This document shows, piece after piece, positions 4,530 to 57,230 of a stretch of DNA of 64,000 nucleotides (positions are counted from its first letter, which is position 1; each line of letters starts with the position of its first letter). The DNA lies in contig OX597831.1 of the NCBI GenBank assembly GCA_951406725.2, forward strand, positions 13,082,001-13,146,000, read 5' to 3'. The notes beneath the pieces were generated by a model that was not told where the DNA came from, ran no database searches, and saw nothing but the letters and a program-made list of their open reading frames with translations. The stretch is from Octopus vulgaris (taxonomy: Eukaryota). A program made the translations under genes and the position numbers.

Positions 4530-4566
4530 TTAGTACCGGTTTCCGCCTTTTAGACTTTTCAACTAA
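4530..4566 (-). ncRNA. Hammerhead-like motif, U3-A8 core variant
   Basis: Minus strand: UUAG UUGAAAA GUCU-AAA-AGGC G GAAA CCGG UA CUAA. Stem I UUAG/CUAA, palindromic ACCGGU stem III, GUA triplet, one extra G before GAAA. Confidence 0.5.
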
Positions 4567-4676
4567 GAGTATTTTAATCTGGGAACTATGCACCATCATC
4601 TGGCGTAGACTGTTTTTAGTTTGACTAATATATTGTTCTTGATACATATCAGATTTTCCGAAGGTTTCCGAAGCAC

Positions 4677-5152
4677 ATACCCAAAAGAAACCGGAATTTT
4701 GCAATATCATTTTATTCACTAAGTTTTACATGTTCACATTTCCATCCCTTTCACGGTATTCTCCATTTGAAGCAATGCATCGGTTCAGACGAATTTTCCA
4801 CTGTTGGAAACTGCTGGAACTCTTGCGAAGTGATGCCTTTTAACGCCTATGCAAATCGGTAGCATCAGCTTTCCTCACCAGTGATAACCTTGCTAAAAAG
4901 GTCCGGATAAACTTCCAACTGTTCTTTCAGTTCACAACATGCATTCATCCGTGATTGCTTTTGATCTTCCTTGAGCACGTGAGGCATAAATTTTGCTGCA
5001 AGTCTTTTCATTCGCAGTTCCTCGCTCATTTGTTGCTGGAGCTTCAAGATACACCAGTCATAACAAGTCCGTCGTTTGTTCAGTGACGGTCCTCCACGAT
5101 CAGTTTTATAAATTTTCGTGTTTTATTCGTTCGGTAGGTTGACAGTCGCCCT
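4677..5152 (-). mobile_element. Internally deleted mariner transposase remnant
   Basis: ORF 4865-5047 AAKFMPHVLKEDQKQSRMNAC...KVITGEES matches mariner ARWVPHxL...QK..R...IVTGDE. It is followed almost directly by the frameshifted C-terminal ...QQWKIRLNRCIASNGEY, so most of the catalytic domain is missing. Confidence 0.85.
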
Positions 5153-5158
5153 CAACAT

Positions 5159-5412
5159 GGGGAGAAAGTGTGAGAGAGAGTGTGTGTGTGTGTGTTTGTG
5201 CGTGTGTGTATGTGTGCCTGTGTATCTAAAAGGAGTGTCAATGGAAAAGAGAAAGAAAGAAAGAAGGAAGAGAGAAAGAAGAAATACATTTTTTCTTCTT
5301 CCCCTCTTCCTTCTTTCTTTCCTTCACTTGTCCATTGACACTCCTTTCAGATACACAGGCACACACACACACACACACACAAACACACACACTCTCTCTC
5401 ACCTTTTCCCCA
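5159..5412. repeat. Fold-back inverted repeat, ~125-bp arms
   Basis: GCCTGTGTATCTAAAAGGAGTGTCAATGGA (~5217) pairs with TCCATTGACACTCCTTTCAGATACACAGGC (~5331). The flanking (TG)n/(CA)n and purine/pyrimidine tracts also mirror each other. Confidence 0.9.
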
Positions 5413-5502
5413 TTCCTCACCCTCGTTTACTATACAATATCTCTCTCCACCCCTACACACTCAACAATACTATAACAAGAGACCAATCCCCTCAAAAAAT
5501 TC

Positions 5503-52383: not shown

Positions 52384-52912
52384 TGTAGTAGTGATGTCAG
52401 TTATGTTTTACAATTTACAACTATAGTGAGACGACTAAACTGTGTGCCTTAAATACATTTGTTTAGGGTTCAAAATGTTAATTTTTGAAAACTGTATTCT
52501 GACCAATCAGTGTGTGATTTTACTGAATTACTTAAGTTGATTAGTGTTTGGTTTAGGCGTCACGGTTTGTTGAACATGTCACTAGACCTGTATTTTGACC
52601 ATGGCTAAAGCAGTAATTGTTGGACCATTTTAGAAATGGTGTAAACAATATTTTCCTGGGATTTTTACATTTCAATTATCCTCACCATCATCATTATAAT
52701 CTCTTTTATTATTGTTGTTGTTGTTGTTATAAGTAGGAGTGGCTGTGATAATAGAACTTTAAACTACAAATAAGATAATTTTTACTACTTTTCTCTTGAC
52801 TTAGCTATTATTTTATATATATATATATATATATATATATATATATATATATATATATATATATATATATATATAGAGAGAGAGAGAGAGAGAGAGAGAG
52901 AGAGAGAGAGAG

Positions 52913-53277
52913 AGGCATTCCGTCGGTTACGACGACGAGGGTTCCAGTTGATCCGATCAAGGGAACAGCCTGCTATTGAAATTAATGTGCAAGTGGCTGA
53001 GCACTCCACAAACACGTGTACCCTTAACGTAGTTCTCGGGGAGATTCAGCAAGACACAGAGTGTGTCAAGGCTGGCCCCTTTGAAATACAGGTACAACAG
53101 AAACCGGAAGAAAAAGTGAAAGTTGTGGTGAAAGAGTACAGCAGGATTCACCACCAGCCCCTGCCGGAGCCTTGTGGGGATTTAGATGTTTTCGCTCAAT
53201 AAACACTCTGGGAATCGAAACTGCGATCCTATGACCGCGAGTCTGCTGCCCTAACCACTGAACCATTGCGTGTCCAC
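52913..53277 (-). mobile_element. SINE family C head with a third type of tail
   Basis: Head as in 22639. The plus-strand tail TTCCGTCGGTTACGACGACGAGGGTTCCAGTTGATCCG... is also seen decayed at ~53960-54120. Confidence 0.8.
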
Positions 53278-56200
53278 ACACATACACACACACACACACA
53301 CACACACACACACACACACACATACACACACACACATATATATATATAATGGGTCACTTTCAGTTTCGGTTTACCAAATCCATTCACAGGGTTTTGGTCA
53401 GCCCGAGGCGTAAGTAGCTTCTTACCACACAGAAGCAAGCTTCTTACGACACAGCCATACTTGGTTCTCTTACTCTTTACATTTTTGTCATTTATTTCCT
53501 TCTTATTGTATTTTGCATATTTTAATTCACTTCCTATTTCCATATGTTATTCTATGTCTAACGTTGTCATGTATCCTGATATATTATGCCTTTTTTCTAT
53601 CAATATATTTGAACTTTGTGTTTTTTCATACTCTTACTTTCATATTGTATATTTTAAATTATCTTCTCTTCTTGTGTGTTTTTTGTTTGTGGACCAACCT
53701 ACGTTGTCGTATATTCTCTTTCAATGTTCGCTCTTATTGTATATTTTAAATTATCGTGTTTGATGTTTCTGTATCTTTTACACTAGTTTCGTAGTTGCCT
53801 GCGCTTCTTTCTCGTGTGTCGTGTCTTCGTGTATACTTTTAAGCAAGCGTGTGTTCTTTTGAAGAATGCACAGCAAGAATTATCTCGGTTCAATGCAACG
53901 AACACGAGATTAAAATATGTTTCGTGAGAAGAATATGTAAAGATAAATAAATTTTTTTATATGGATTCTCCGTCAGTTTCGACGATGACGATTCGGCTGT
54001 ATAAGGGAATTTGTTTTCGTTAAATAAACACTTAAGTGGTTGAGTATTCCACAGATATGCATTCTTAATGTAATTCTCAGGCTAAGTTGCCGCGTGACGC
54101 AAAGTGACAGGCACAATGCAGAAACAGAGAGAGAGAGGGGGAAAGACAGAGGGAGAGAGAGAGGAGAGGAAGAAAGAGAAGGAAAGAAGGAAAGAGAGAG
54201 AGAGAGAGAGAGAGAGAGAGAGAGAGAGAGCGAGAAATACCTCTTTCACATTTTTTTCTCTCTCTGGTTCGTGCCTGTAATTTAAAGTATTCTTGACAAG
54301 TATTATTATTATTATTAACGTTTTTGTTTTAGCTCCCAGGTCAAAACTAATCAAGGGTACCTAGGTACAGAAGACTGGCCATAATTTATCTTTATTTTGA
54401 GGTATAGGCTTACGATGACTATAGTATAGGGTATATATATATATATATATATATATATATATATATATATATATGTATGTATGCTTATATATATATGTAT
54501 GTATATATATATATAATATGTATGTATGTATATATATATATATATATATATATATGTATGTATGTATGTATATATATATATATATATATATATATATATA
54601 TACAGACACATACACACACACACACACACACTATATATATATATATATATATATATATATATATATATATATGATCATACTGCCGGTTAACGTGTTTCTT
54701 CTTAAGTCGGTTTAAGATGGCGGCTGATCACCACGGTGCTTATGTTGTACCCGAGCTAACAAAAAGTTGCTCGGTTCTGGTAACTTTTCTCTCTCGGCAA
54801 ATCTGAGACTCCTGTTCCAGACTGCATATTTTTCGTGGAGTGAGTCAGAGTATTAATAATGACAAAGAGAACGCAGACTTTTCACATACATAAATTTTTT
54901 TAACAGCTAAAGATGCTGTAAAAAGTAACTGTCAAATAATATTATGGATGCGAAAAATCTTCGTTCATCATCATCATTAATAGTATATATATATATATAT
55001 ATATATATATATATATATATATATATATATATATATATATGTATATATACGTATAGGCGCAGGCATGGTTGTGTGGTAAGTAGCTTGCTTATCAGCCACA
55101 TGGTTCCGGATTCATTCCCAGTGCGTGGAACCTTAGGCAAGTGTACTAATTTGAACTCTTCTAATTTGAACTCAGAACGTAGCGACAGACGAAATACCGC
55201 TAAGCATTTCGCCCGGCGTGCTAATGTTTCTTATTTCTTTATTCCCCACAAGGGGCTAAAAATAGAGGGGACAAACAAGGATAGACAAACGGATTAAGTC
55301 GATTACGTCGACCTCGGCGGAATTTGAACTCAGAACGTAACAGCAGACGGAATACCGCTATGCACTCCGTCCGGCGTGCTAACGTTTCTGCCAGTTCGAC
55401 TCCTTCGATCATTTAAATAATGTAAACGCAATGAACATATAGGTGTAATAGCTATGCAAGTTATTTGACCTGAGACAGCATGTTAAAAATACACGACTGT
55501 AGCGTGGAAATCACATAATAGCCGTTCGAAAACAAAAAAGGCAGCTGACGTCACATTAACATTTGTTATATAAGATAAATATTAGCCAGAAATTCAGATG
55601 TCAGTGGACGCCTGCCACCGATGAAGCGCAGTGCACTGAAATTACGTGATTTGTGTGTGCTGTGAGGACATCTTAAAGCGAAAACCATAATATTGGTCAT
55701 TCTAATAAGAAATCCACGATATGTAAGACACAAAGAGTGTCATACGGTAGAAATATTGCATCTGCCGCCAACATCAGTTTTTTATAAGCCAGCTGACTAC
55801 TTGCAACGTCAATGACTTAAAAATCATTAGTATTCTATGTATCGCTGGCAAAGATTTGGCTGTTATTTCAAGCAGAAAACACGATTACTCAAAGACACTT
55901 GCGTTCTGTAGTATCAATGGTCTCTGATCCGTAAATGCTTGTTTCGTTCATCTTTCTTTCATTCTTTCTTTCTTCGTTTCTTTGTTTCTTTCTTTTATTT
56001 TACCTTCTGTCTATCATCCTCGCTTCAGCACACATACGCACAGACATAATGTATACAAATATTTTTACCGTATAAGAACAGATATATAAAATAAACTTGT
56101 ATACATATTTACACGCATATATATATATATATATATATATATATATATATATATATATATATATATATATATATATATATATATATATATATATATATAT

Positions 56201-57149
56201 ATATATATATATATATACATATATATATATATATATATATATATATATGTACACACACACATTTTCACCTATATACCATTCTGCTCAACTACTTTACGGA
56301 ACTGTGCTAGTTGATGCTGTGTTAATTCTTTATCGAACTCAGCTGCTTGACGGCCTCTGGCAGTCGTTTCAGATGCTTCCCAGGTAGGTATTCGTTATTT
56401 TCCGCACTGACACGTTCAACTCGTGCTTTCTGTCTACAGACGTAGCGAACTCCTTCATTTTTTAAATCTTTTTGTTAAGTCGACGATTGCTTTCCTAGCG
56501 CGTGCGCAATTGACTCACGGAAGTAACGATGCTCGCAGGCAAGTTATTGATAGCATCTAATGAATTTCTATATAACATGTTATCTTTGAAAGCATTCGGT
56601 TCTCTCTCTCTCTCTCTCTCTCTCTCTATATATATATATATATATATAAATATATATACTATTCATATAAAATACATTGTACGTTTATGTGTTTAAATGT
56701 ACACTGTATTTTATATGAATAATATATAGTCTGTTGACTAGTTTTTCTTCTCGCTAGATCACTGGCAGCAAAGAATTTTTCAAAATTCTTTTGCTACCCT
56801 AAGATTTATTGATATATATATATATATATATATATATATATATATATATATATATATTGAGTAGTTGAATGAATTATCTTATTAAGGATAATTCGAAAGA
56901 TAACCGATACCTGGGTAGCAAATTCACATCAGAAAGAACACGGTTGAAGTTACGTCCCTAGGGCATAGACTACGTGCTTTCGTGCGGAAATTTGTCTGTT
57001 TATTTTAAATAGATCCTTCTAGATTCTTCTACATTCAACCACTCTGACGTCACTCCTTATAAACAGACACTCATTTTCGCCATGAGCTCCTTGAGAGCAG
57101 TCAGCTAAAAGCTTTTTGGGCATTTTGATGTCGACATAAGTTCCTTGCC

Positions 57150-57230
57150 TTTCTTGATGAGAAATCTGCATAATGTACTCCTTATTCCTTCGGAATTAGG
57201 AATATGCAGCCTTCGAAACATATGTCGAAA
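57150..57230 (+). ncRNA. Type I hammerhead motif (C3>U) with extended stem II
   Basis: UUUC UUGAUGA GAA-au-CUGCAUA..UCCU-u-AUUCC-UUC-GGAAU-u-AGGA-a-UAUGCAG-cc-UUC GAAA CAUAUG UC GAAA. Palindromic ACAUAUGU, GUC triplet, overlapping AATAAA. Confidence 0.8.

Follow-up and report, generated by a model that had tools for sequence, protein, structure and literature searches.

What carries the hammerhead ribozymes that crowd a stretch of the Octopus vulgaris genome, and does their cutting matter for the way they spread? The stretch (hereafter "the window") comprises the 64 kb from position 13,082,001 to 13,146,000 of contig OX597831.1 (assembly GCA_951406725.2), a chromosome-scale contig in a 2.8-Gb genome of 227 contigs, and is rich in (TA)n, (CA)n and related repeats. 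A preliminary description listed eleven type I hammerhead motifs and two relics in it, and proposed that several distinct, non-autonomous families, either Penelope-like elements (PLEs) or retrozyme-like, had colonised (TA)n microsatellites. The explanation that we favour, with good confidence, assigns the motifs, as hammerhead folds, to the 3' terminal repeats of numerous separate families, nine of the eleven linked to PLEs. The window copies would be 3' stubs, likely produced by early-stopping target-primed reverse transcription into (TA)n, and the fold would be kept by selection on master elements, likely as a slow, assisted cutter whose cutting is not needed for each insertion. That PLEs carry hammerheads and that PLEs of the Hydra clade, an octopus element included, target (TA)n is already published.

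All eleven motifs and both relics (near 17553 on the minus and 44943 on the plus strand) were found at the positions and on the strands originally given; each motif and its family are named below by the motif's window position. A canonical-only descriptor (CUGANGA, GAAA, a NUH cut site with H not G, stem I of at least 4 bp and stem II of at least 3 bp) matches the window four times (39291, 41989, 46073 and 52339), compared with a mean of 0.045 and a maximum of 1 in 200 local dinucleotide shuffles, so that the excess over shuffled sequence anticipated in the preliminary description is there. A descriptor that also permits the U3-A8 core gives five matches versus 0.12 (60 shuffles); a U3-A8 match at 23484 on the minus strand is probably due to chance. 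With one core mismatch allowed there are 8 matches versus 2.5 ± 1.8, with a maximum of 8 (25 shuffles), which is weak alone. The imperfect motifs therefore needed evidence from their families; all of the descriptors, moreover, were composed post hoc, when the motifs were already known. Folding by itself adds little support, with z scores from +0.9 to -2.5 and only 2 of 12 at or below -2. An Rfam scan of the window had no hammerhead family among the best 150 of 265 matches, which consisted of microRNAs and small nucleolar RNAs, driven by microsatellites and below their own cut-offs; the repeat search of the window was likewise dominated by microsatellites.

The motifs share an architecture. The type I junction of three stems, open at stem I, is retained while the stem sequences differ from family to family, as first described, and between related families stem I changes in pairs: A-U to G-C between the 52339 and 39050 families, and A-U, G-U and C-G between the 28706 group and 42870 (both from alignments). 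The tiny self-complementary stem III ascribed to most motifs is a perfect palindrome in 8 of the 11 and forms no hairpin alone; its pairing with a second copy is computed at -1.7 to -13.3 kcal/mol. In 39291, stem III is instead a true hairpin.

The density of motifs is ordinary for this genome. Forty 10-kb stretches at round coordinates, picked blind from 27 contigs (399,900 bases), contain 20 canonical motifs in 10 of the 40 stretches, compared with 0.23 in shuffles. Since this matches the density in the window, we rejected the idea of a local hot spot, and with it the view of the window as a special colony. Extrapolation gives ~140,000 canonical motifs genome-wide (bootstrap 49,000-266,000), or 91,000 if one tandem array is left out. 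An estimate of ~10^5 differs from the ~9,000 minimal hammerheads of Xenopus tropicalis and the 4,000 of coelacanth (PMC4209133); the axolotl has up to 120,000 retrozyme copies (PMC7229834).

Each window motif belongs to its own multi-copy family, as the preliminary description had supposed, with 1,014-3,976 first-look candidates apiece in the genome. For each motif, 40 candidates were scored and 30 loci fetched, and the relatives counted below are the best matches to the window copy; in the 4530 family, 10 of the 30 loci had matched a neighbouring repeat and lacked the motif, and these were excluded before counting. Alignments show 28706, 42870 and 44943 to be akin, and likewise 39050 and 52339. 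The 3' ends lie at medians of 79-266 nt past the core and, in most families, differ by only a few bases between copies, with two alternative ends (an optional tail) in 39291 and 46073, while the 5' ends are scattered. Of 320 copies, those of the window among them, 214 have a (TA)4 tract after the 3' end and 98 have one at the 5' end, versus a background of ~5%; 28 of these 98 represent an internal tract of the 39291 untranslated region (UTR). Of the 11 window copies, 8 have (TA)4 no more than ~45 nt from the 3' end and only 4 have it on the 5' side, so that the "(TA)n-flanked" elements of the preliminary description are mainly one-sided. Inverted upstream copies accompany 55 of 309 loci, and a direct second hammerhead lies within ~1.5 kb at 7 of 309. 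The hallmarks of PLEs are thus present: direct repeats, or pseudo-long terminal repeats (pLTRs; loci L371 and L487), inverted copies (L372 and L373) and 5' truncation. Such ends, truncations and inverted copies mark truncated PLE insertions according to PMC8557442.

Further evidence comes from longer copies, in which 9 of the 11 families link to upstream sequence coding for reverse transcriptase (RT) or GIY-YIG endonuclease (EN). Seven of these links are firm, and those of 5503 and 41989 rest on one or a few loci. The window motif at 57150-57230 (+) lies in a stub (57010-57279) that ends at (TA)n and has a private C3U change, all 29 relatives being canonical. In this family, pLTRs 3.24 kb apart flank an RT frame at L371 and RT plus EN are found at L372, with the motifs RW, DKT, CxxC and CxH. 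The young 39291 family has RT and EN upstream at L373, with a CxCx5C linker, CxxC and CxH; its window motif (39291-39341, +), a type I hammerhead with a canonical core whose stem III is a 4-bp hairpin, lies in a stub at 39123-39427, and 29 of 29 relatives are canonical at a mean identity of 99%. For 42688 (42687-42747, -; stub 42575-42757), the open reading frame (ORF) lies upstream in L381, L287 and L279, with CxCx5C in L381, and G12A is decay of the window copy, as 20 of 29 relatives are canonical. By RW and DKT (seen in the 57150 family), CxxC and CxH around E and N (57150 and 39291) and the lack of CCHH, these three families fit the Hydra clade. The motif at 41989-42076 (+; stub 41869-42108), with a long stem II and 24 of 29 relatives canonical, is probably also of this clade: Hydra-type EN occurs in L066 (in sense, weak) and, inverted, in L089 and L077, with CxCx5C in L089. 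An inverted partial copy of this element, with part of the core gone, lies at 41656-41749 (-). A Pfam scan of 8 Hydra-type coding pieces returned nothing meaningful.

These families share with the C-terminal EN-bearing PLEs of the Hydra clade (Craig et al. 2021, PMC8557442) RW, DKT, CxxC, CxH, in part also CxCx5C, and (TA)n insertion, as well as a hammerhead at the 3' end that is canonical and whose stem III measures 3-4 bp, and by eye the L381 ORF resembles Hydra-1_Obim of Octopus bimaculoides in the supplement of that paper. They differ in number, with at least three or four families of thousands of copies here versus one octopus family listed there, and in the 57150 family, which lacks the CxCx5C linker in both long copies (L371 and L372). 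That motif may help microsatellite targeting. Both copies have a long Asn-rich stretch in the linker, and yet 21 of 30 copies of the family end at (TA)n.

The preliminary description had 39291 directly preceding recognisable PLE coding sequence. We rejected a link between the two: the family's ORF lies upstream, and the downstream relic at 39502-39666 (+), a decayed Hydra-type RT thumb fragment identified by tblastn, matches another family (41% identity, E 6e-7) and not the RT of 39291. A (TA)n tract separates it from the 39291 element, and it belongs to a different, older insertion, with an EN relic at 40811-40915. A separate observation concerns the 39291 3' UTR (from ORF to hammerhead), which is ~3.4 kb long and 80% alternating purine-pyrimidine, versus 53% in the genome sample; its landmarks are unique and recur at like offsets in all 7 long copies (L373-L379) and at 24 of 29 short loci. 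It appears that degenerate microsatellite DNA travels and multiplies with this young element, and the length of this microsatellite-like UTR contrasts with Hydra elements described as <3 kb (PMC8557442).

The second large group resembles the Neptune clade. The minimal hammerhead at 42870-42904 (-) lies in a stub (42776-42962) of an autonomous Neptune-type PLE, and the decayed relic at 44924-44999 (+), 80% identical to it over 74 nt, belongs to the same group. An upstream walk along the 42870 family reached GIY-YIG with a Neptune-type linker (12,567 first-look candidates); 22 of 30 such GIY-YIG loci have a hammerhead within 1.5 kb downstream, in none of which is position 6 an A. Six long-ORF loci (L483-L488) have frames of 787-1047 codons, counted between stops, whose translations show linker cysteines, DKG and RVT_1 (E 1e-7). 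All six have U6, one of them in both pLTRs, and L487 has two pLTRs 4.5 kb apart. The family's translations contain DKG, a linker Cx2-5CxxC zinc finger and a CCHH endonuclease, and its Pfam GIY-YIG match (E 0.007) is below that Pfam family's cut-off. The related 28706 motif (28706-28740, +; stub 28532-28842), a minimal hammerhead with GAAACGU, has Neptune-type RT upstream in L232 at 60% identity. Judged by motifs, 42870, 44943 and 28706 are of the Neptune clade, with Nematis, which has the same linker according to PMC8557442, as a possible alternative. They share with Neptune DKG, a Cx4CxxC linker, a C-terminal GIY-YIG with CxxC and His, the GAAACGU hammerhead and microsatellite targeting, and differ in that the dominant family here has U6 in its pLTRs, long-ORF copies included.

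Three further families complete the nine. The canonical hammerhead at 52339-52383 (-), with a palindromic stem III and 24 of 29 relatives canonical, lies in a PLE stub that runs from ~52759 down to at least 52202, and RT/EN remnants with DKG-like and linker Cys motifs lie upstream at 7 of 29 loci. The 4530 hammerhead (4530-4566, -), with a palindromic stem III, is part of an old PLE 3' stub (~4470-4577) and has RT or endonuclease remnants upstream in sense at 7 of 19 loci. For 5503 (5503-5543, +; stub 5393-5625, ending at (TA)n), a GIY-YIG end lies upstream in one locus, L501, whose UTR is common to L500. Because 9 of the 11 families are linked to coding sequence in their longer copies, most window motifs are best read as 5'-truncated 3' stubs of autonomous Hydra, Neptune and related elements, not as retrozymes. 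The proposal of several distinct PLE-type families tied to (TA)n therefore stands, while their being mostly non-autonomous or retrozyme-like does not.

The two remaining families are where a retrozyme-like origin has most in its favour. The unit at 45744-46344 (+) spans 601 nt, is non-coding and contains a canonical hammerhead at 46073-46165, and 21 of 29 relatives likewise have a canonical core; the 3' part of another unit (45616-45742) precedes it head-to-tail. Among copies that reach unit position 1, the unit's own end precedes its start in all but 2 of 28 rows; many copies extend 103-115 nt into the next unit, and some are longer than the unit. Two full hammerheads seldom occur in one copy, and the family forms partial tandems and inverted pairs, not long arrays. 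This unit is likely a non-autonomous PLE derivative. The 39050 element (38852-39094, with (TA)n on both sides and its hammerhead-like motif at 39050-39094, -) possibly belongs to a non-autonomous family as well: no ORF was found, and 27 of 30 copies begin in a cluster 4-65 nt upstream of the core. Outside the window, at L331:2296-4830 (G000:C1, from 20000001), the same genome has a head-to-tail array of 353-359 bp units that ends at (TA)n, with a canonical type I hammerhead per unit (5 direct, 2 inverted), which by its structure is a classic non-LTR-retrozyme-like array. If retrozymes are defined as tandem arrays of non-coding units, 150-450 bp long and each with its own hammerhead, only this array qualifies, and none of the window families does. 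We regard it as improbable that the window consists mostly of retrozyme-like families that are cut, circularised and inserted as units by a PLE. The 46073 unit, the clustered 39050 ends and the L331 array speak for such a process; against it stand the coding sequence upstream of most families, the variable 5' ends and the rarity of direct tandem hammerheads.

In five families the departure from the core consensus is shared among relatives. A fully canonical core (CUGANGA, GAAA, NUH) is found in 4 of 11 window copies and, in 6 of the 11 families, in most relatives; the 4530 (the known U3-A8 swap), 5503, 28706 (one subfamily), 39050 and 42870 families depart from the consensus. The variants are U3-A8 in 16 of 19 relatives of 4530, C13 (GCAA) in 26 of 29 for 5503, G17 (a UG cut site) in 20 of 29 close relatives of 28706, an extra U beside C3 (UUGAnGA) in 27 of 29 for 39050, and U6 in 28 of 29 for 42870. 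Position 13 of the 5503 family is C in 31, T in 2 and A in 0 of 33 exact genome matches, and other subfamily copies of 28706 have a UU cut site. U3-A8 has been published (PMC4209133, PMC3088659). Family-fixed A6U, A13C and U-insertion cores were not found in the literature searched, although the supplements of PMC4209133 and the work of Lunse, Weinberg and Breaker on PLE hammerhead dimers may list some, and the accessible text of an octopus repeat annotation (PMC13282606) does not mention hammerheads or ribozymes.

The U6 family is the most striking of these. An exact 26-mer with U6 has 15,954 copies in the genome, versus 184 with A6; some of the A6 copies come from an older relative of the family, which suggests that U6 is derived. 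Among the first 100 of 14,445 core-open matches, counted by eye, positions 3, 4, 5, 6, 8 and 9 are constant in 96-100, and the variable positions are N7 (T46, C25, A18, G11) and H17 (A73, T26, G1). Across 31 bystander copies (copies in other loci), a common non-CpG second letter occurs in 0 of 34 motif columns versus 27 of 124 flank columns (Fisher p 0.0013, with columns that are not independent); loop II is likewise invariant. Because only N7 and H17 vary, the U6 masters appear to keep a hammerhead-like pattern around a core expected to cut poorly: single CUGA changes have low activity in a full mutational scan (PMC9901934), and an A6C core is slow and prefers Mn2+ (PMC3088659, PMC7151607).

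How would such elements move? The evidence on the young 39291 family argues that RT reads through the cut site: of 2,535 copies that hold the 29-mer after it, 2,457 (97%) also hold the six bases before it, and the exact 35-mer across the site accordingly has 2,457 genome copies. There is also no peak of 5' ends at cut sites in general, with 0 of 107 bystander 5' ends within 3 nt of one. As 97% of 39291 copies cross the site, cleaved RNA ends leave no genomic footprint. This agrees with an anole PLE studied in vitro, in which reverse transcription begins at an internal position, insertion is normal for mutants of the hammerhead, and the ribozyme depends on protein for cutting (PMC11167929). In the mechanism that we propose, the GIY-YIG domain would nick TA-rich DNA, and RT, starting from a constant point inside the element ~80-270 nt downstream of the core, would copy through the hammerhead on uncut (or rejoined) RNA. 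It would mostly disengage after no more than a few hundred bases, and an inverted second copy would sometimes result. Selection on master elements would maintain the fold, likely because it slowly cuts read-through transcripts as a dimer or with the help of protein; with cutting dispensable for each insertion, weakened cores such as U6 could spread. The 46073 unit would likely borrow the same PLE machinery.

Read-through could also arise if cleavage were obligatory, with both pLTR hammerheads cut, the unit RNA ligated into a circle (a model proposed in PMC4209133) and RT crossing the rebuilt junction. A ligated circle would equally give longer-than-unit copies, U6 would have to be active in vivo, and the hammerhead-like constraint even in the U6 family fits. 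We nevertheless consider this unlikely. G17 is common in one subfamily, although a G at the hammerhead cut site is generally not cleaved; A6 and other CUGA changes cut poorly in vitro (PMC3088659, PMC9901934); and the anole PLE inserts without cleavage (PMC11167929). A stronger contender, to which we still assign less than even chances, is that the variant cores are dead relics, their fold conserved only as a protein-binding or promoter element. U6, C13 and G17 are expected to be damaging, the invariance of loop II is not demanded by catalysis alone, and Naiad PLEs thrive without canonical hammerheads (PMC8557442). The two positions that vary, however, are exactly those that catalysis leaves free, and G17 appears in just one of the 100 U6 copies counted, versus A in 73 and U in 26. 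For U6 itself, a purely structural role is about as likely as activity. It is a tentative and somewhat doubtful suggestion that a large autonomous Neptune-type family runs on a CUGU hammerhead, with a U6 core that cuts as a dimer or with protein assistance, under hammerhead-like selection in tens of thousands of copies, beside A13C and U-insertion cores in sister families.

Several points weigh against the explanation by truncated PLE stubs with a selected fold. The ORF links of 5503 and 41989 depend on few loci, and upstream walks along the 46073 and 39050 families reached no ORF. The 3' (TA)n association is weak for 52339 (7 of 30), 4530 (4 of 20) and 5503 (12 of 30). Few loci (7 of 309) have the direct tandem pairs from which dimers could arise. 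The family samples favour the subfamily of the window copy, being its best matches; the clade assignments are based on motifs rather than a tree; and the column test in the U6 family is non-independent, with poly-T flanks that may inflate flank variation.

Other features of the window and genome deserve mention. The relic at 17544-17576 (-) is the 5' half of a hammerhead from a twelfth family, whose copies at L498 and L345 have GAAA, a palindromic stem III, stem I and the full canonical motif. Further canonical hammerheads, several with a palindromic stem III, occur at L334, L337, L343, L347, L350 and L353 in families absent from the window. Two long, near-perfect inverted repeats beside (TA)n tracts (38213-38400 and 38500-38745) resemble head-to-head PLE stubs, and by eye the unit end of the L331 array resembles the end of the first. 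The window also contains a tandem array with a ~52 bp unit (61000-63900) and decayed coding remnants resembling long interspersed nuclear elements (LINEs) at 7150-9050 (-) and 60473-60949 (-), which by their motifs are L1/Tx1-like and CR1-like.

Much of what we describe has precedent. The motifs share with metazoan PLE hammerheads (Cervera and De la Pena 2014, PMC4209133) the type I fold, a 4-6 bp stem I, an extra nucleotide after A9 and a tiny palindromic stem III. There, too, a genome holds many families, truncated PLEs leave mostly single motifs, inverted pairs lie 100-700 bp apart, and U3-A8 cores occur. The 46073 unit and the L331 array are non-coding and head-to-tail with a canonical type I hammerhead, as are non-LTR retrozymes (Cervera and De la Pena 2020, PMC7229834; bioRxiv 10.64898/2026.07.22.740005), but the 46073 unit has 601 nt versus the typical 150-450 bp, and none of the other window motifs forms part of a tandem repeat. 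Changes at position 6, insertions beside C3 and U3-A8 are all known among natural core variants (Perreault et al. 2011, PMC3088659; the A6C study, PMC7151607). Those, however, are rare phage or saltern motifs, whereas U6 is the norm in at least 16,000 copies of an animal retroelement here.

This genome offers a natural experiment on the role of the hammerhead in PLEs, with a canonical young family (39291), a huge U6 family, its A6 relative (L392) and long-ORF copies side by side. Most worth following are the U6 family and the selection on its fold, the remaining fixed variants, the sheer number of motifs and the one or two non-autonomous units. With ~10^5 motifs in the genome, many of the short repeats still unclassified in octopus may be PLE stubs. 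If the U6 core cuts, the accepted core consensus and the search descriptors built on it overlook large natural families; if it does not, the element has retained the fold for a non-catalytic job.

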